In this document: piece after piece, positions 4,884-53,346 of the stretch
Layout of the letters: every line of letters begins with the position of its first letter
How positions within the stretch are numbered: position 1 is the stretch's first letter
Assembly (NCBI GenBank): GCA_025449905.1
Contig: JANWIN010000012.1
Span: 109,318-173,317 of the forward strand
Reading direction: 5' to 3'
Source of the DNA: Candidatus Saccharimonadales bacterium
GTDB lineage: Bacteria; Patescibacteriota; Saccharimonadia; Saccharimonadales; JANWIN01
Length of the DNA: 64,000 nt
Program-made: the position numbers and the translations under genes
The notes under the pieces: model-generated
Database searches by the model: none
Told to the model about the DNA's origin: nothing
Seen by the model: only the letters and a program-made list of their open reading frames with translations

Positions 4884-5033
4884 ATGTTAATAACAATAGC
4901 TATAGTTTTAGGGCTTTTATGGTTGGTGGGGTTGTTGGGTCACGTTGGCGGCAATCTAGTACATCTTGTGCTGTTTGTCGCGATTGTGATACTTATTTAT
5001 GATTTCGTAACCGGTCGTCGCCACGAAGTTTAA
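4884..5033 (+). CDS. small membrane protein, lmo0937-family-like (49 aa)
   Basis: Hand-translated as MLITIAIVLGLLWLVGLLGHVGGNLVHLVLFVAIVILIYDFVTGRRHEV. An AAGGAGG Shine-Dalgarno lies at 4872-4878, 5 nt upstream of the ATG. The ORF falls below the track size cutoff. Confidence 0.6.
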   Translation: MLITIAIVLGLLWLVGLLGHVGGNLVHLVLFVAIVILIYDFVTGRRHEV

Positions 5034-5080
5034 AGTTGTAAAAACAGGGGTAATTTGCTAAAGTCCTCAGGAGTTTGACT

Positions 5081-5253
5081 GCCAGACAGTTTGGCTTTAG
5101 GCTAATGCTAGGAAAGCCTTTATTTGAGAGGTTGGGTGTATTTATATACATCTAGCCGACAAAATAAAGAAGCTTGACACAGCAGTAGCCAAAGAGCACA
5201 AACAGAATTTCTAAGTCTGTTAGAGAGCAGGTTTGTGTGGCCAAACTGTCTGG
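5081..5253 (+). other. 173-bp unit bounded by a perfect 14-bp inverted repeat; candidate structured ncRNA or MITE-like insert abutting tRNA-Lys
   Basis: CCAGACAGTTTGGC (5081-5094) is the exact reverse complement of GCCAAACTGTCTGG (5240-5253). Nested internal hairpins are present, for example cacaaacaga...tctgtt...gtttgtgtg. There is no ORF. Confidence 0.3.
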
Positions 5254-26581: not shown

Positions 26582-27823
26582 ATGAAATTCAAAAAACAAG
26601 CCCGACAGTATAAAAAAGAAGCTAAAGATTACGCTCGGATGCAAAAACGCCGAGCTCGCAATATTCAGGGCCACCCGTTTGTTGTCCCGGTACTAACTTT
26701 TTTGTTTTTGTTTTTCGTATCAATGATAGCTTTTATTGGCCTTAACGCTCAAACCATCGGTGCTGGTGATGCCCATGTTGTTCAGTTTTCCATCGACGGC
26801 GAAAAACAAGTTCTACCGACCCGGGCCAGCACGGTTGGCAAATTGCTAAATCGTCTTGAAATAAAAGTTGGCAAGCATGATGTTATCGAGCCGCCGCTGG
26901 ACACGCCGATTTTAGAAGATAATTTCAAAATCAATCTTTACCGCGCCAAGCCGGTGATTGTAGTCGAGGGCAAAAAAGAAGTTTCAATGCTAACAGCCAT
27001 AACTAGTCCCAAAAATGTTGTGACTAAAGCCGGTTTTAAATTATTTCCTGAAGATAGAGTGGTCTTAGCCAGTGCTGATGACGTTTTAAACGAAGGCGTT
27101 ATTGGGCACAAAATTATTATTGAGCATGCCACGCCTGTAAAACTAAATCTTTTTGGGCGCATGCTTAGTCTTAGAACCCATTCTAAAACTGCTCGAGAAC
27201 TTTTAAAAGAACGCGGCGTAGACGTCTCGGGAGTTAATGTCTTTCCTTCTATCAGTGCAAATCTAAAAAAAAATTCGGTGGTGTTTGTGACCAAACCGGG
27301 AATTGTTGTTAAATTCCAAGAAGTTAGTCTGCCGTTTGGCCAAAGTTTTGTTGATGATTATAGTCTGCCCTACGGCGTCACCAAAGTACGCAGCGCCGGT
27401 GAAAATGGTAAAAAGGTAATTGTATTTTCGGCACCAAAAAAGCATCCTGAACAAAAACACAAGCTTCAAGAAGTTTTGGTTAGTAGGCCGGTAAACGCGG
27501 TTATCGCCCGCGGGCGCCGCATCAATACTTCAAGTGTTTCTGGCGATCGGGCCGCTTTAATGGCCGCCGCCGGCATTTCATCTGGCGATTATTACGCCGT
27601 TGACTTTATTATTAGTCACGAATCCGGCTGGCGTCCTGGCGCTCTTAGCGGTAGTGGCTGCGCAGGGCTGGGCCAGGCTTGCCCGGGCTCAAAAGTTATA
27701 AGTGCTTGCCCTAACTGGTCTAACAATGCTGTTTGCCAGCTGCGCTTCTTTAGCGGTTATGCCCAGAGGTATGGGGGATGGCAGCAGGCGTATTTTGTGT
27801 GGCAAAATCAGGGCTGGTGGTGA
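26582..27823 (+). CDS. DUF348/G5-domain cell-wall protein with C-terminal transglycosylase-like domain
   Basis: An N-terminal TM is followed by DUF348-like repeats and a G5-like region (VRSAGENGKKV). The C-terminal ISHESGWRPGA...GLGQ...GWW resembles the Apf/SLT-like muralytic domain. Confidence 0.7.
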   Translation: MKFKKQARQYKKEAKDYARMQKRRARNIQGHPFVVPVLTFLFLFFVSMIAFIGLNAQTIGAGDAHVVQFSIDGEKQVLPTRASTVGKLLNRLEIKVGKHDVIEPPLDTPILEDNFKINLYRAKPVIVVEGKKEVSMLTAITSPKNVVTKAGFKLFPEDRVVLASADDVLNEGVIGHKIIIEHATPVKLNLFGRMLSLRTHSKTARELLKERGVDVSGVNVFPSISANLKKNSVVFVTKPGIVVKFQEVSLPFGQSFVDDYSLPYGVTKVRSAGENGKKVIVFSAPKKHPEQKHKLQEVLVSRPVNAVIARGRRINTSSVSGDRAALMAAAGISSGDYYAVDFIISHESGWRPGALSGSGCAGLGQACPGSKVISACPNWSNNAVCQLRFFSGYAQRYGGWQQAYFVWQNQGWW

Positions 27824-27838
27824 TCTGAGCAATGTGAC

Positions 27839-27881
27839 GTGCTGACCTGTTTTCGGGCAGAGCCCGAAACTCTGTCAGCAC
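27839..27881 (+). terminator. two-tier hairpin after the G5 gene (terminator candidate without U-tract)
   Basis: GTGCTGAC-ctgt-TTTCGGGC-aga-GCCCGAAA-ctct-GTCAGCAC. Confidence 0.45.
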
Positions 27882-27982
27882 TCTTGACGAATCGCTGTGT
27901 CAGTAACGCTCTGTCGCTCAGTCATCGTATTGGAATACGATTCCTTCGTTCCTCGCTACTTCCTAGCGCTTCATCCAAGCAC
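27881..27982 (+). repeat. copy A of the ~103-nt intergenic element family
   Basis: Alignable by eye with 42917-43019 and 53208-53310. Shared blocks are TCTTG(G/A)C, GC.G.GT, the hairpin ATCGTATT-gg-AATACGAT, TTCG..CTCG, CCTAGCGC, and C(A/C)(C/-)TC(C/A)AAG. Confidence 0.6.
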
Positions 27983-28019
27983 ATCGCTCAGGCGCCCCAT
28001 AGGGTACAATTAGCTCACA

Positions 28020-29359: not shown

Positions 29360-30658
29360 ATGGCAAAAAACCTCAACGATAGACTGGAAGGCAGGGCTCT
29401 GCCTATAGTTCTATCGATTATCTTTTTAGACGTACTGGGCATTGGTATATTGTTTCCAGTCTTGCCCCAGCTTATTTTCCAGATTTTTATCCCGGCTGGG
29501 CATAGTTACTCCGGTTCACTGATAATGCTGGGCTGGCTGGTTGGTATTTATCCCTTGATGCAATTCGTGGCTACACCAATTTTAGGCCAGCTAAGCGACC
29601 GCTTTGGCCGAAAACCAGTTCTGGGTATAAGCGTGGCCGGTACGGCTTTGGGGTATGTCTTATTTGCCATTGGTATAATCACCAAAAATATCCCGTTGTT
29701 GTTTTTTGCTAGAGCCTTTGACGGGATTACGGGAGGAAATCTTAGTGTCGCCCGGGCGGTGATTGCTGATGTCAGCTCTCCAGAGCACCGCACCCGCAAC
29801 TTTGGTTTTATCGGGGCGGCGTTTGGTATGGGCTTTGTTATGGGGCCCTATCTGGGTGCCCGCTTAGCTACGCCAGGTGCCAATTTTTTTGGACTGTTTA
29901 ATACCCCGCATTGGTTTAATGCCGCTACACCGTTTTGGTTCACGGCTATTTTGAGCCTTATGAATGTGCTTCTGATAATGTTTATTTTGCCGGAAACACA
30001 TAAGCACATACAAAAACACGTCAAGATTATTTGGTCCAAGTCGCTAAGCAATATTAAAAAGGCCGCTACCAGCCCGACGCTTCGGGTTATCTTTGGTTCG
30101 GAGTTTTTGTTTTGGAGCGGCTTCACCTTCTTTACGACCTTCTTCCAGGTCCTGTTAATTCAAAAGCTGCATTTTACTCCGGCCAATGTCGGTGACTTTT
30201 TTGCCTACATTGGTATTTGGCTGGCTGTGTCACAGGCTACCTTAACGGTTGCTCTAGCCAAACGCTATAAAAACTGGACAGTCCTAAAATTTGGCTTTAT
30301 AGCGGCCGGGCTAACCCTCTATGCCATGCTGTGGCCGGTCAATACAACTCAGCTGTTAATTGTGACGCCTTTCTTCGCGATGTTTGCCGGGCTGGTTATT
30401 GCCAACGCTACGGCTTTAGTAAGCCTGTCGGCAGATAAGACCATTCAAGGCGAAGTATTAGGTATAGATTTTAGCGTTCAGGCCCTAGCTCAAGCTATAC
30501 CGGCCATCATTGCCGGCTATATAGCTACTATGGGAATTAACGTGCCGGTGATAGTTGGCGGTTCGGTAGTTATACTTGGCGGTATTTTCTTCAATATCTT
30601 TTATCGTCCTCCGAAGCATTTGCTACATCAAGATGCTGATCAAGCCACTCTTGGGTAG
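29360..30658 (+). CDS. MFS transporter (drug:H+ antiporter-like)
   Basis: 12 TM helices and MFS motif A GQLSDRFGRKPVL. It lies directly downstream of marR. Confidence 0.85.
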   Translation: MAKNLNDRLEGRALPIVLSIIFLDVLGIGILFPVLPQLIFQIFIPAGHSYSGSLIMLGWLVGIYPLMQFVATPILGQLSDRFGRKPVLGISVAGTALGYVLFAIGIITKNIPLLFFARAFDGITGGNLSVARAVIADVSSPEHRTRNFGFIGAAFGMGFVMGPYLGARLATPGANFFGLFNTPHWFNAATPFWFTAILSLMNVLLIMFILPETHKHIQKHVKIIWSKSLSNIKKAATSPTLRVIFGSEFLFWSGFTFFTTFFQVLLIQKLHFTPANVGDFFAYIGIWLAVSQATLTVALAKRYKNWTVLKFGFIAAGLTLYAMLWPVNTTQLLIVTPFFAMFAGLVIANATALVSLSADKTIQGEVLGIDFSVQALAQAIPAIIAGYIATMGINVPVIVGGSVVILGGIFFNIFYRPPKHLLHQDADQATLG

Positions 30659-30665
30659 GTATTGA

Positions 30666-30724
30666 CCCCGCCAGTTAGATTGATAGACGTTGTCTTGCGC
30701 AGCAAATCAATCTAACAGGCGGGG
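30666..30724 (+). terminator. long imperfect hairpin after the MFS gene (terminator candidate, no U-tract)
   Basis: CCCCGCC-aGTTAGATTGAT...ATCAATCTAACa-GGCGGGG, that is 7 + 11 bp with one mismatch. Confidence 0.45.
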
Positions 30725-30753
30725 TTGACAAAAATGTGCTTATGGTTTATTAT
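30725..30753 (+). promoter_or_regulatory. near-consensus sigma70 promoter of ssrA (TTGACA-N17-TATTAT)
   Basis: TTGACA at 30725-30730 and TATTAT at 30748-30753. The mature tmRNA 5' end lies 10 nt downstream. Confidence 0.7.
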
Positions 30754-30763
30754 TATTTGTTAC

Positions 30764-31178
30764 GGGGCTGAATTAAGCTTGACGTTAGTACTTTATCGGT
30801 TAGATCAGCAGGTCGCTTGTCAGCGTTATAGGCAAAACCCAAGTAATTGCAAAATTTCTTGACCGCGTAGCTACTGCTTTCGAGAACGCACGTGCAAACG
30901 TTGCTTCTCTCTTTAGCAATCTAGCTTACGCACCAATTGCAGCTTAATATTATCTGCAATCGCGCCTAACATGACATCAGATAACGCTAGTGCGTGTCAT
31001 ATCATCTGGTTGCGCAGACTTTACGGTCCGTAAATCTGCTAAGACTTTAGGACACACAGAGAATGACTTTTTGGCTGTTTATCGGTCATTCTTTGTTCAA
31101 AGCTAAATAGCCTAAACCTGTAGGAAGACTAACTAATAAACTAAACGGACGCCGGAGCATTACCGGCCAGCTCCACCA
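30764..31178 (+). ncRNA. ssrA: tmRNA (transfer-messenger RNA)
   Basis: The 5' GGGGCTG pairs with the 3' CAGCTCC-A-CCA, including the G3:U70 alanine identity pair. The 3' end GGACGCCGGAGCATTACCGGCCAGCTCCACCA aligns with E. coli GGACGCGGGTTCAACTCCCGCCAGCTCCACCA. An internal tag frame ends ...LAYAPIAA-TAA (stop 30945-30947). Confidence 0.9.
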
Positions 31179-42195: not shown

Positions 42196-42510
42196 ATGAA
42201 CCAACAACTACCAGCAATGAACGATGTCCAGAAGAGAATGGTGACATTATCTATCGGTGTAGACCGAAAAACTACCATTAAAGCTTCGGTTTTATACATT
42301 GGTGACAGCGTTGTGGCTAGCAATAAACATAGCGAAGTCACGAGCGCAAAAGAAGTATCAGAGCAAGCTCCAGCAGTTGAGGCTAAAAAACTGACTTCAG
42401 AGCCTGAATTGATCGAGGCGGAGGAAGTCAGCATCCAAGAGAAACAGGCGCGGAGCGCAGTTTTTGAATCATTTAACGTAGGGAATCAAAATGTTCAAGA
42501 AGCCGTTTGA
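42196..42510 (+). CDS. hypothetical protein
   Basis: From the ORF track only (104 aa). It overlaps the next ORF by 20 nt. Confidence 0.4.
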   Translation: MNQQLPAMNDVQKRMVTLSIGVDRKTTIKASVLYIGDSVVASNKHSEVTSAKEVSEQAPAVEAKKLTSEPELIEAEEVSIQEKQARSAVFESFNVGNQNVQEAV

Positions 42511-42859
42511 TAAAATTATTTCGCAAAATCTAGAGAGAAAACGAACAAAGCTCTACCAAGCATATCTGAAGACCGAAGCTAAAGCTGGCGGCTATTTATT
42601 TGGCCAAGTACCACGAGGGATTCAACGAGAATTTTACTGCTTAGATGAGCAGAATTGGGTATGGCGCGAGCGCTGGTTGGACATGGACGGCCAAGTTCAG
42701 GTACACACCACCGAGTATCTTATTAAACAGGACGGCATCTTTAAATCTGAAAATAAAGCAGACTACCAGCGCGTAAGTAAAGATGAAGCCGAAAGTCTTT
42801 ACGATGCGGCTAAAGCGTACGAACAGACAATTGGCCAAGAAATCTACAACTTCGTCTAG
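42491..42859 (+). CDS. hypothetical protein
   Basis: From the ORF track only (122 aa, Trp/Tyr-rich). Confidence 0.45.
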   Translation: MFKKPFDKIISQNLERKRTKLYQAYLKTEAKAGGYLFGQVPRGIQREFYCLDEQNWVWRERWLDMDGQVQVHTTEYLIKQDGIFKSENKADYQRVSKDEAESLYDAAKAYEQTIGQEIYNFV

Positions 42860-42916
42860 AGAATTGTCGTCGCACGTAAACCTGCCAAATAGTAAAGCTA
42901 TTTGCACTGTTTCCTG

Positions 42917-43019
42917 CTCTTGGCGGACTGCGGTGTTGCAGGCTCCACTACTCGTTCATCGTATTTTATATACGACTCGCTCCGTTGCTCACCTGCGCCT
43001 TGCATTCCACTCAAGCGCC
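42917..43019 (+). repeat. copy B of the ~103-nt intergenic element family
   Basis: Alignable with copies A and C. The hairpin is TCGTAT-tttat-ATACGA. A TAAAAT box at 43039-43044 lies 10 nt upstream of the ATG at 43055. Confidence 0.6.
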
Positions 43020-43054
43020 AATCCTATAGATAGATTGCTAAAATAGGAAAGATA

Positions 43055-51992: not shown

Positions 51993-53153
51993 GTGTTGTC
52001 TTTGTTACTATTTATCGGACTCACCACCAGTGGTGAGCAGGAGAAGTATATTCGTACCTCATCAAGAACTATCAATCAGTTAGCTCAAGATAAGTTACAA
52101 GCTCAATCCGATCAGTACAAACGCTTAAGTAAGCGTATTTTTAAACAGTACAAAAAAAGAATTGTTCGCTATAGCGTTCTAGCGGCCAACGCCGCCTTGT
52201 TAGTATTAGTTTTAGTAGTGGTCCATTCGCCAGATACAGGCCAGTCAATTGCTAAATCGGCAGTTTCAGCTAGCAGCTCAGATACAGTCAATGCCGTAGA
52301 TCAATTGTCTTCAGCCGATATTGCCGTAAACGTTGCCAAGATGACCAATCTGGCAGAATCAACTTCGGTAGCTAATAATGCCGACAGTGTTAATATACGT
52401 CTGGCTTTAGCAAATTCTAGCGAAACTGTTATTGGCAAGCCGCAGGTTATTAGCACCGATATTAAGTCGCGTAGTGATATCCAGACCTACGTTGTTCAAA
52501 GCGGCGACACGATTAGCTCATTGGCCTCTAAGTTTAACGTTACCTCCGACACACTGCGCTGGTCTAACGCCATTTCCGGCGACAGCTTAGAGCCCGGTAG
52601 TGTGCTAAGGGTTTTGCCCGGTGTAAATGGCATTATTTATCTGGTTCGCGGCGGTGATACGCCAGAATCTTTGGCCAGCCGTTTCCAGGTTAGCAAAGAC
52701 ATCATCATTGCTTATAACGATGCCGAAGTCGGCGGCCTGCCGGTAGGCGGCTATATTATTATTCCTGGCGGCACGCCGGCCATAGTCGGCACACCGGCAA
52801 GCAGTAATACGGTAGCTGGCTTTACGCCGAGCTATGGTTATAACGGCTATGATTACGGTTGGTGTACTTGGTACGTAGCTTCTAAGATTTCAGTACCAAC
52901 TAACTGGGGCAATGCCAATACTTGGAGCGTTTATGCGCCATCTAGCGGCTGGTCTGTCAGCCAGGCCCCTCGAGCAGGCGGTATTGGCCAGACAACTGGC
53001 GGTTGGGCTGGTCACGTTGCTTATATCGAAGCCGTGTCTCCAGATGGCAGTATGGTTAAATTCTCTGATATGAACGGTTTAGCTGGCTGGGGTCGAGTTG
53101 GTAGAAGCGACTGGGTGCCGGCTTCACACTTCGACAACTACATCTACCGCTAG
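51993..53153 (+). CDS. peptidoglycan hydrolase with two LysM domains and a C-terminal CHAP domain
   Basis: LysM repeats YVVQSGDTISSLASKFNV and YLVRGGDTPESLASRFQV. CHAP Cys context WCTWYV and His context GHVAYIE. GTG start in the track. Confidence 0.8.
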   Translation: MLSLLLFIGLTTSGEQEKYIRTSSRTINQLAQDKLQAQSDQYKRLSKRIFKQYKKRIVRYSVLAANAALLVLVLVVVHSPDTGQSIAKSAVSASSSDTVNAVDQLSSADIAVNVAKMTNLAESTSVANNADSVNIRLALANSSETVIGKPQVISTDIKSRSDIQTYVVQSGDTISSLASKFNVTSDTLRWSNAISGDSLEPGSVLRVLPGVNGIIYLVRGGDTPESLASRFQVSKDIIIAYNDAEVGGLPVGGYIIIPGGTPAIVGTPASSNTVAGFTPSYGYNGYDYGWCTWYVASKISVPTNWGNANTWSVYAPSSGWSVSQAPRAGGIGQTTGGWAGHVAYIEAVSPDGSMVKFSDMNGLAGWGRVGRSDWVPASHFDNYIYR

Positions 53154-53166
53154 AAGCTATGTAACA

Positions 53167-53207
53167 TTCTAGCCTGCTCCTGAGCAGAACTCAGGATTCT
53201 GCTAGAA
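53167..53207 (+). terminator. two-tier hairpin after the LysM-CHAP gene (terminator candidate without U-tract)
   Basis: TTCTAGC...CCTGAG-cagaa-CTCAGG...GCTAGAA. Confidence 0.45.
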
Positions 53208-53310
53208 TTCTTGGCACGCTGCGTTGTTAACTTCCTGTGCGACTCAATCACCGTATTTCATATACGGCTCTTTCGCTACTCGTTGTTTCCTAGCAGCGCA
53301 CTCAAGTACA
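53208..53310 (+). repeat. copy C of the ~103-nt intergenic element family
   Basis: Alignable with copies A and B. The hairpin CCGTAT-ttcat-ATACGG carries compensatory T>C and A>G changes. A TATAAT box at 53330-53335 lies 11 nt upstream of the ATG at 53347. Confidence 0.6.
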
Positions 53311-53346
53311 TAACTTCTAGTATTTCGCATATAATTATAACTAGAG

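Follow-up and report, generated by a model that had tools for sequence, protein, structure and literature searches.

Four diverged copies of a probable selfish palindromic repeat in a Saccharimonadales genome

The locus and its four element copies

The window analyzed here is the whole stretch of 64,000 nucleotides (nt) taken from contig JANWIN010000012.1 (positions 109,318 to 173,317, forward strand) of a Candidatus Saccharimonadales bacterium (GenBank assembly GCA_025449905.1). Three of its spacers, in front of rsmA, a cysteine desulfurase gene, and obg, hold copies A, B, and C of one structured element, and a fourth copy, D, stands before a tRNA-Lys gene. These are quite probably four old, diverged copies of a nonautonomous, selfish, protein-coding palindromic repeat of Saccharibacteria/Patescibacteria that resembles the Rickettsia palindromic elements (RPE).

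Copy A occupies positions 27825 to 27991 on the minus strand (145.7 bits, E = 2.9e-41 with covariance model R1), with boundaries taken from columns 7 to 198 of family alignment A4. It adjoins the TGA stop codon (27821 to 27823) of a G5/DUF348 gene, and its other end falls 28 nt short of the rsmA ATG (28020). Copy B (42858 to 43027, minus strand; 155 bits with the covariance model) begins at the TAG stop codon (42857 to 42859) of an open reading frame (ORF) of 122 amino acids (aa) and ends 27 nt short of the cysteine desulfurase ATG (43055). Copy C (53152 to 53318, minus strand; 151.2 bits) overlaps by 2 nt the TAG stop codon (53151 to 53153) of a LysM-CHAP gene and ends 28 nt short of the obg ATG (53347). 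Copy D (5083 to 5252, plus strand; 75.4 bits, E = 1.3e-20) is full length and inverted relative to A to C, and its 3′ end adjoins the first base of tRNA-Lys (5254). Because A to C are flush with the upstream stop, their gap of 27 to 28 nt to the ATG is the rest of a typical short spacer, and because the stop codons at B and C are in their native position, the upstream genes there are not truncated.

A sequence-only reading had described three homologous intergenic elements of about 103 nt at 27881 to 27982, 42917 to 43019, and 53208 to 53310. That homology is borne out: the sequences are in place, A, B, and C align across about 105 nt, and leave-one-out nhmmer profiles built from any two copies recovered the third (E = 7e-11 to 1.6e-9) with no other match at E < 1 in the 64-kb window, so the similarity is real. 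Both the length and the number needed revision. The unit is in fact about 167 nt long, with the ~103-nt element corresponding to one of its arms (P2, below), and the covariance model added the fourth, more diverged copy D; nhmmer gave A to C only.

Pairwise identity among the four copies is 44 to 60%, and copies from different genomes average 54%. The window copies are mutually no closer than copies across genomes and are therefore old. In the reading frame shared by the family, A, C, and D carry three to four stop codons each; copy A, with three, is counted as decayed for that reason. Copy B is the least decayed, with the family frame open over P2 (peptide LSGMQGAGEQRSESYIKYDERVVEPATPQSAKS). 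All four copies still fold, at −55 to −77 kcal/mol.

Architecture, covariation, and strand asymmetry

The full unit, recognized by reading the flanks of 48 family members, is a three-way junction composed of a 12-bp outer stem (P1), a hairpin of ~100 nt (P2), and a hairpin of ~45 nt (P3). Between the outer P1 pairs it spans 163 to 173 nt, most often 167 nt (~56 codons); a short form of the element has no P3 and is a single long hairpin. On the minus strand of copy A, the 5′ strand of P1 (27980 to 27991; CTGAGCGATGTG) pairs with CACATTGCTCAG at 27825 to 27836, P2 (27883 to 27979; apex ATCGTAT-tcc-AATACGAT) covers approximately the interval first noted at 27881 to 27982, and P3 (27839 to 27881) reads GTGCTG..GTTTCGGG-ctctg-CCCGAAAAC..CAGCAC. 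Conservation thus extends ~55 nt past one side of the element as first delimited. P2 of each copy, and of the alignment, is one long imperfect hairpin with its ends, CTTG...CAAG, paired and with a conserved apex, GAGCCGTAT-loop-ATACGGTGA.

The central CGTAT/ATACG hairpin and the compensatory T>C/A>G change in copy C that had been read from the sequence are both real; across 33 family members, the closing pair of the apex hairpin is CG in 19, UA in 6, and UG in 5. The apex dyad CGTAT..ATACG itself is unchanged in all 33 long-form copies, and copy D is altered on both arms (CGTAT/ATACG to TGTAT/ATACA). A two-tier hairpin reported in front of A and C also exists, as arm P3 plus one P1 strand, but it is not restricted to those two, since B has one too. 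Short direct repeats beside the hairpin did not hold up as a family trait; the second CGCTCAG in copy A is a P1 arm.

RNAalifold gave 55 pairs for the 33 long-form copies, 50 of them with compensatory changes; the covariance model derives from this alignment. Paired cells amounted to 89.7%, compared with 30 to 43% when partners were slid, and double-change cells numbered 478, compared with 153 in shuffles (0 of 500 shuffles reached the observed value). All 11 pairs of P1 are changed on both sides somewhere in the family, and helices 6 and 7 of P3 covary across it. The termini (P1) are the least conserved part, with a weak family consensus (nnGAGYTTYGCA), and the internal structure and apex are the most conserved.

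The fold is strongly asymmetric between strands. The minus strand (z = −2.9 to −4.2) gives a far better fold of copies A to C than the plus strand, with a minimum free energy for copy A of −75.8 kcal/mol on the minus strand versus −60.2 kcal/mol on the opposite one, and the folding strand in these three copies is opposite to the flanking genes. Of 43 copies, 42 fold more stably on the coding-sense strand, the one that carries the family reading frame, than on the complement (mean difference, −13.7 kcal/mol; binomial P = 1e-11); this strand also has two conserved wobble pairs, U.G and G.U. Such asymmetry is not expected of a double-stranded palindrome and argues that the fold is maintained by something acting on one strand.

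Distribution of the family

A pattern scan of 185,579 species genomes yielded 119 loci, and copies were studied on 8-kb pieces. nhmmer and the covariance model together found ~65 copies in 440 kb of contigs, several loci having two to three. The contigs that carry them are titled Candidatus Saccharibacteria, Saccharimonadales, or Patescibacteria, with a few matches on contigs labeled Paceibacterota, Gracilibacteria, Peribacteria, or “Gammaproteobacteria.” Three loci titled “uncultured Gammaproteobacteria” (L022, L038 [CAZKAD01], and L057 [CAZNDY01]) hold good copies at 52 to 75 bits; such contigs are likely misbinned or mislabeled contigs of the candidate phyla radiation (CPR). The cysteine desulfurase of the window is 70% identical to its nearest named homologue, from Candidatus Saccharimonadales. 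The earlier description of the element as structured, kept paired by compensatory change, and “portable” is supported.

The sole sign of recent amplification seen is a tandem array in a Patescibacteria metagenome-assembled genome (MAG), where 4.4 short-form copies (L117, 2670 to 3239) repeat with a period of 130 nt at 97% identity in the spacer between two minus-strand genes. Viral and phage searches with the element returned chance hairpin matches or none, and a metagenome scan for relatives with the FtsA-like protein found none.

Copies inside genes

Nine copies detected at the DNA level lie within long ORFs, eight of which Pfam identifies as LigA, an ABC-F ATPase, PurL, UvrD/PcrA, CysS, an RluD-type pseudouridine synthase, NYN, and UDG (the ninth is at L036). 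The insert divides or lengthens their domains. All nine genes read the better-folding strand, and the inserted peptide is hydrophilic and rich in Gly, Ala, Gln, and Glu (...(L/M)QGAGEQRTEPYxxYGEGAAxxxTxQSAKSxxGVxSSAxQQAGA...). All 9 genic copies but just 7 of 34 intergenic ones (mean of 1.7 stops) have an open family frame (P = 2e-5). Given a frame that is open in genes and closed in most spacers, the genic copies must be read through rather than removed. The sequence-only reading had ruled out a peptide; this stands for the decayed copies A and C but not for copy B over P2 or for the family, whose genic copies are open and encode a conserved peptide.

An exhaustive peptide-profile search of 1.84 billion representative proteins returned 276 protein clusters at E ≤ 1e-3. 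Most are ORFs of 50 to 90 aa miscalled on intergenic copies, and ~25 are long proteins with an internal match, for which Pfam named FolD, PrmC (three clusters), RluD-type synthase, DNA methyltransferase, DinB/ImuB-like, malic enzyme, GTPase, GATase, MsrA, DHFR, and TsaB/D. Host genes became visible through this exhaustive profile, and a word-indexed protein search with the insert peptide gave short spurious ORFs only. The insert region matched no Pfam or NCBIfam domain, and six insert peptides had no NCBIfam match at E ≤ 10. The same profile found no in-gene copies in the window.

The insert appears to occupy the same position in UDG of two MAGs (L015, 5999 to 6164, and P0010), in PrmC of three 50%-identity clusters (P0158, P0213, and P0252), and in two RluD-type synthases (L102 and P0160); these are either old inherited insertions or hot spots. 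In the ABC-F gene (L085, 4530 to 6506, minus strand), a second, different insertion may be present in the second ABC_tran domain, where 137 profile positions take up 192 residues in a region apart from the element copy (residues 159 to 196).

Orthologous sites, ends, and flanks

Comparison of orthologous genes identifies sites with and without the element. The UvrD, FolD, and DHFR genes of the window are empty; relative to them, the UvrD of L048 has 52 to 55 extra residues, a FolD that is 60% identical (P0147) has ~58, and a DHFR (P0174) has ~55, so that the net insert, ~56 codons, is as long as the complete P1-P2-P3 unit. At the site of copy B, relatives that keep the order TatD, two small ORFs, and desulfurase have spacers of 35 (L124), 37 (L125), 36 (L127), and 2 (L126) nt, compared with 195 nt in the window, and a fifth relative has a decayed remnant of 105 nt. 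At the copy C site, the LysM-CHAP/obg spacer of L120 is 65 nt long and has no element, with the stop codon at the same residue. The covariance model with filters off found no copy in 61 kb from three or four of the relatives, compared with four in the 64-kb window. The two small ORFs between TatD and the desulfurase (104 and 122 aa; window positions 42196 to 42859), the latter without a Pfam match, are present in the window and in L122 to L127 and absent from L120 (7112 to 7118) and L128 to L130, where the spacer is 5 nt.

Relative to flanking ORFs, 22 copies are co-oriented with both sides and 17 are opposite. The two ends of the element behave differently. In 14 intergenic long-form copies, including A, B, and C, the coding-sense 3′ end lies −8 to +3 nt from the stop codon of a convergent gene, and in two others, D and L020, it meets a tRNA at its first base. 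Of 34 intergenic copies, 16 thus have the 3′ end flush with a stop codon or tRNA, and no more than 2, both dubious, have the 5′ end so placed (P = 2e-4). Distances to genes suggest that short-form copies share this polarity. Selection in very tight spacers explains the polarity in part but not the difference between ends.

A grid over possible boundaries gave no convincing signal of a 2- to 4-nt direct repeat that would indicate target site duplication (TSD) (best, 4 of 33, at 3 nt), and flank composition revealed no motif and no conserved tetranucleotide at either end. TA|GAR...YTC|TA junctions occur in B, C, L051, L088, L047, and L009, and TA flanks are absent from A, D, L112, and the genic copies.

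We also considered whether P1 is derived from the host, by insertion into the loop of a preexisting hairpin or by inverted target duplication, an idea prompted by the hypervariability of P1, by a small hairpin at the empty site of L125, and by copies L048 and L020, in which the palindrome continues into host sequence. It was rejected as a general rule because P1 has a family consensus (nnGAGYTTYGCA) and because the net insert in FolD, UvrD, and DHFR is the whole unit. In two copies the palindrome runs past P1, over the first 9 nt of tRNA-Met (L020, 5440 to 5625) and over the conserved R-S-F codons of UvrD (L048, 4335 to 4535), the opposite flank being complementary in each; for such extension into the host, chance or a template switch that lengthens the palindrome is the better explanation.

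A probable selfish repeat, possibly recognized as a single strand

We infer that a trans-acting enzyme that recognizes a folded single strand (single-stranded DNA or RNA) would copy, or would once have copied, the element to new sites. We favor single-strand recognition because conservation is of shape and not of sequence, one strand is preferred, and no duplication is seen. It would explain why pairing is conserved over sequence and why G.U pairs make one strand far more stable. The window copies most likely have no dedicated host function and are passive relics. A, B, and C would have settled between a stop codon and the leaderless-type promoter region of ~27 nt that precedes the next gene, leaving a strong hairpin behind the upstream gene as a by-product. 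Across the family, copies survive in two settings. Those within genes are always in the sense orientation and in the frame that gives a hydrophilic peptide, and those in short spacers typically have the 3′ end flush with a convergent gene's stop codon or with a tRNA at its 5′ end.

Several observations weigh against this account. No transposase, reverse transcriptase, or partner was identified, and no transposase turned up among the ~45 window proteins scanned. Because there is no consistent target site duplication or flank motif, the case for mobility draws on distribution only. The copies are 44 to 60% identical yet fold stably, which could reflect either recent insertion from diverged masters or maintenance of structure in place, and the latter would hint at function or at self-correction of the palindrome. 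Finally, simple selfish spread does not account for the polarity of insertion (3′ end flush in 16 of 34 intergenic copies, 5′ end in no more than 2).

A more far-reaching proposal, which we hold to be possible but rather doubtful, is that the element represents a new route for moving DNA in CPR bacteria, in which an enzyme so far without a link to transposition would recognize a Y-shaped single strand (RNA or DNA) of ~167 nt by shape and join it, with fixed polarity and no target duplication, exactly at gene boundaries (the stop codon of a convergent gene or a tRNA 5′ end). The structure of the element could also, or instead, be actively maintained in place by selection or palindrome self-correction, and the 56-residue peptide could then be a recurrent surface module of Saccharibacteria enzymes, tolerated or even useful.

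Comparison with known repeats

Protein-coding palindromic repeats have so far passed for an oddity of Rickettsia and a handful of further intracellular bacteria. Saccharibacteria/Patescibacteria are ultrasmall epibionts with reduced genomes, and a second, independent, structurally richer case would show that such repeats recur where genomes are small and selection is relaxed. We know of no mobilizing enzyme for any element of the RPE-like kind; concrete clues to the mechanism of movement come from a fold specific to one strand and from an end that joins flush to stop codons and tRNAs. The family sits in core enzymes (FolD, PrmC, DHFR, UvrD, LigA, and CysS), and enzymes that bear the insert will confuse orthology and domain annotation, just as spurious “hypothetical proteins” of 50 to 90 aa are being annotated on intergenic copies. 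The element is also a ready marker for strain typing.

The closest parallel is with RPE (RPE-1 to RPE-10; Ogata et al. 2000, 2002), which are described as repeats of 105 to 146 bp with a long stem-loop and inverted termini of ~12 bp, found in spacers and fused in frame into many conserved genes, with uncertain TSD (PMC2229807, PMC10969869). The likeness covers a small repeat with a long stem-loop and inverted termini, a location both in spacers and in frame in many unrelated conserved genes, a conserved peptide, an unclear TSD, no known transposase, and a host-dependent bacterium with a reduced genome. The sequence and peptide of the Saccharibacteria element are unrelated to those of RPE, the six insert peptides having had no match in the NCBIfam library, which we take to hold the TIGRFAM models of RPE domains. 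The hosts here are Saccharimonadales/Patescibacteria rather than Rickettsiales, and the long form differs in being a three-way junction with an extra arm, in its strongly strand-asymmetric fold, and in having one end flush with stop codons or tRNA 5′ ends. RPE are reported to insert into tmRNA or RNase P RNA, a target not seen for the Saccharibacteria element. Since its peptides match nothing in NCBIfam and its hosts belong to a different phylum, the element is an analogue of RPE and not a member of the RPE families.

Small structured repeats able to fuse in frame with ORFs are also found in Wolbachia (Ogata 2005) and as Coxiella QMITE1 (PMC5896051), intragenic enterobacterial repetitive intergenic consensus (ERIC) sequences, and Correia elements. 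There, in-frame copies are exceptional or terminal inverted repeats (TIRs) and TSD are clear, whereas at least 20 unrelated gene families are involved here and no TSD was found. Repetitive extragenic palindromes (REPs) are 20 to 40 bp long, extragenic, and marked by a GTAG or CGTC tag (PMC3733652). The Saccharibacteria unit differs from REPs and the bacterial interspersed mosaic elements (BIMEs) by its length of ~167 nt, its copies inside genes, and its lack of a conserved end tetranucleotide. It may nonetheless work as do REP/BIME sequences with REP-associated tyrosine transposases (RAYTs) and the palindrome-associated transposable elements (PATEs) derived from IS200/IS605, with recognition of a folded single strand, no target duplication, strand specificity, and one end beside the target. 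Both are systems of HUH transposases that recognize single-strand hairpins, and in IS200/IS605 insertion sequences (IS) insertion takes place 3′ of a conserved tetra- or pentanucleotide. The absence of TSD and the strand-specific fold are consistent with this comparison, but the flanks here revealed nothing conserved. A Y1 transposase was not identified, although no search was aimed at that transposase. Full-text searches of the paper library used found no paper tying Saccharibacteria/Patescibacteria to such elements.

Alternative explanations

It is unlikely that the element is a structured RNA of benefit to the host, either a multicopy small RNA or a stabilizer, terminator, or processing signal of 3′ untranslated regions, possibly exapted and selected site by site. 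Very strong covariation, a strand-specific fold with conserved G.U pairs, copies that still fold well at ~50% identity, and the regular abutment of one end on gene ends or tRNA 5′ ends speak for such an RNA. However, relative to the flanking genes the better-folding strand runs antisense in A to C and sense in D and ~40% of the others, the same element occurs in open frame within enzymes, and relatives with the same genes have empty or decayed orthologous sites. A U-tract for intrinsic termination is missing, and the earlier statement that no known RNA family matches was upheld: an Rfam scan of the whole window at the gathering threshold gave two tRNAs and a tmRNA only, and permissive scans (E ≤ 10) of copies A and C gave chance-level matches only. 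The small structured RNA first suggested for these spacers is right as to structure; an independent small-RNA gene finds little support against in-frame genic copies and empty orthologous sites.

Similarly improbable is a classical MITE (miniature inverted-repeat transposable element), that is, a deletion derivative of an IS moved as double-stranded DNA by a DDE transposase acting at inverted termini, for example, of the IS630/Tc1 type with TA duplication. P1 acts as inverted termini of ~12 bp with a weak consensus, and the TA junctions of B, C, L051, L088, L047, and L009 would fit a TA target, which would also suit insertion into TAA or TAG stop codons. Those flanks are nevertheless missing from A, D, L112, and the genic copies, and no 2- to 4-nt duplication holds a fixed position (best, 4 of 33). 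The gradient of conservation, lowest at the termini and highest in the apex and internal structure, is the opposite of that of an element recognized by its TIRs, and a strand-asymmetric fold is not expected of a double-stranded substrate. The ~45 window proteins scanned likewise yielded no transposase.

Far less credible is the sequence-only proposal of a portable promoter or regulator-binding module, an element set at constant spacing from a −10 box and a near-leaderless start, with the dyad as an operator. The −10-like hexamers are present 9 to 11 nt before the ATG at A, B, and C, as had been described (TACAAT, 28005 to 28010, plus strand, 9 nt before the rsmA ATG; TAAAAT, 43039 to 43044, before the desulfurase ATG; TATAAT, 53330 to 53335, before the obg ATG). 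The constant 27 to 28 nt between element and ATG, the TAnnnT hexamer within it, and the apex dyad invariant in 33 of 33 long-form copies speak for the proposal. All three hexamers lie outside the element, however, and are a trait of the host: TANNNT ends 6 to 13 nt before the start of 32 of 57 window genes (gene starts at, e.g., 24425, 38740, 45252, 47552, and 60175), most of them without an element, and the empty orthologous site of L120 has a similar one. Orientation to neighboring genes is mixed, copy D is inverted and precedes a tRNA, the distance from the element to the next start in other genomes ranges from 5 to >100 nt, and many copies lie within ORFs. A promoter scan of the copy A spacer found no sigma-70-type promoter, and inspection by eye revealed no −35 box at 17 nt upstream of any of the hexamers.

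An intervening sequence excised from RNA or protein, such as a small self-splicing intron or an intein-like element, might be expected of a compact, highly structured three-way-junction RNA inside essential genes, but it is most improbable. All 9 genic copies keep the frame open and most intergenic ones have it closed, which implies read-through; the net insert of ~56 codons equals the unit length; no ribozyme or intron family matched at E ≤ 10; and the peptide carries no Pfam or NCBIfam domain and falls short of the size of a Hint domain.

Gene starts and other features of the window

Shine-Dalgarno-like motifs precede 8 of the 57 window genes. Together with the hexamer counts, this suggests from sequence that −10-only promoters and leaderless or very-short-leader mRNAs are the rule in the host genome, a testable statement on gene expression in this lineage. 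Among the few clear Shine-Dalgarno sites is an AGGAGG in front of an ORF of ~49 codons (4885 to 5035, plus strand) just 5′ of copy D and tRNA-Lys, which, judged by eye, appears to encode a hydrophobic peptide. The tmRNA of the window (30764 to 31178, plus strand) scores 63 bits with Rfam, at 415 nt versus 374 model positions, and is missed by ARAGORN. Just 5′ of it, at 30637 to 30756, lies a weak match to the covariance model of the element (E = 0.12).

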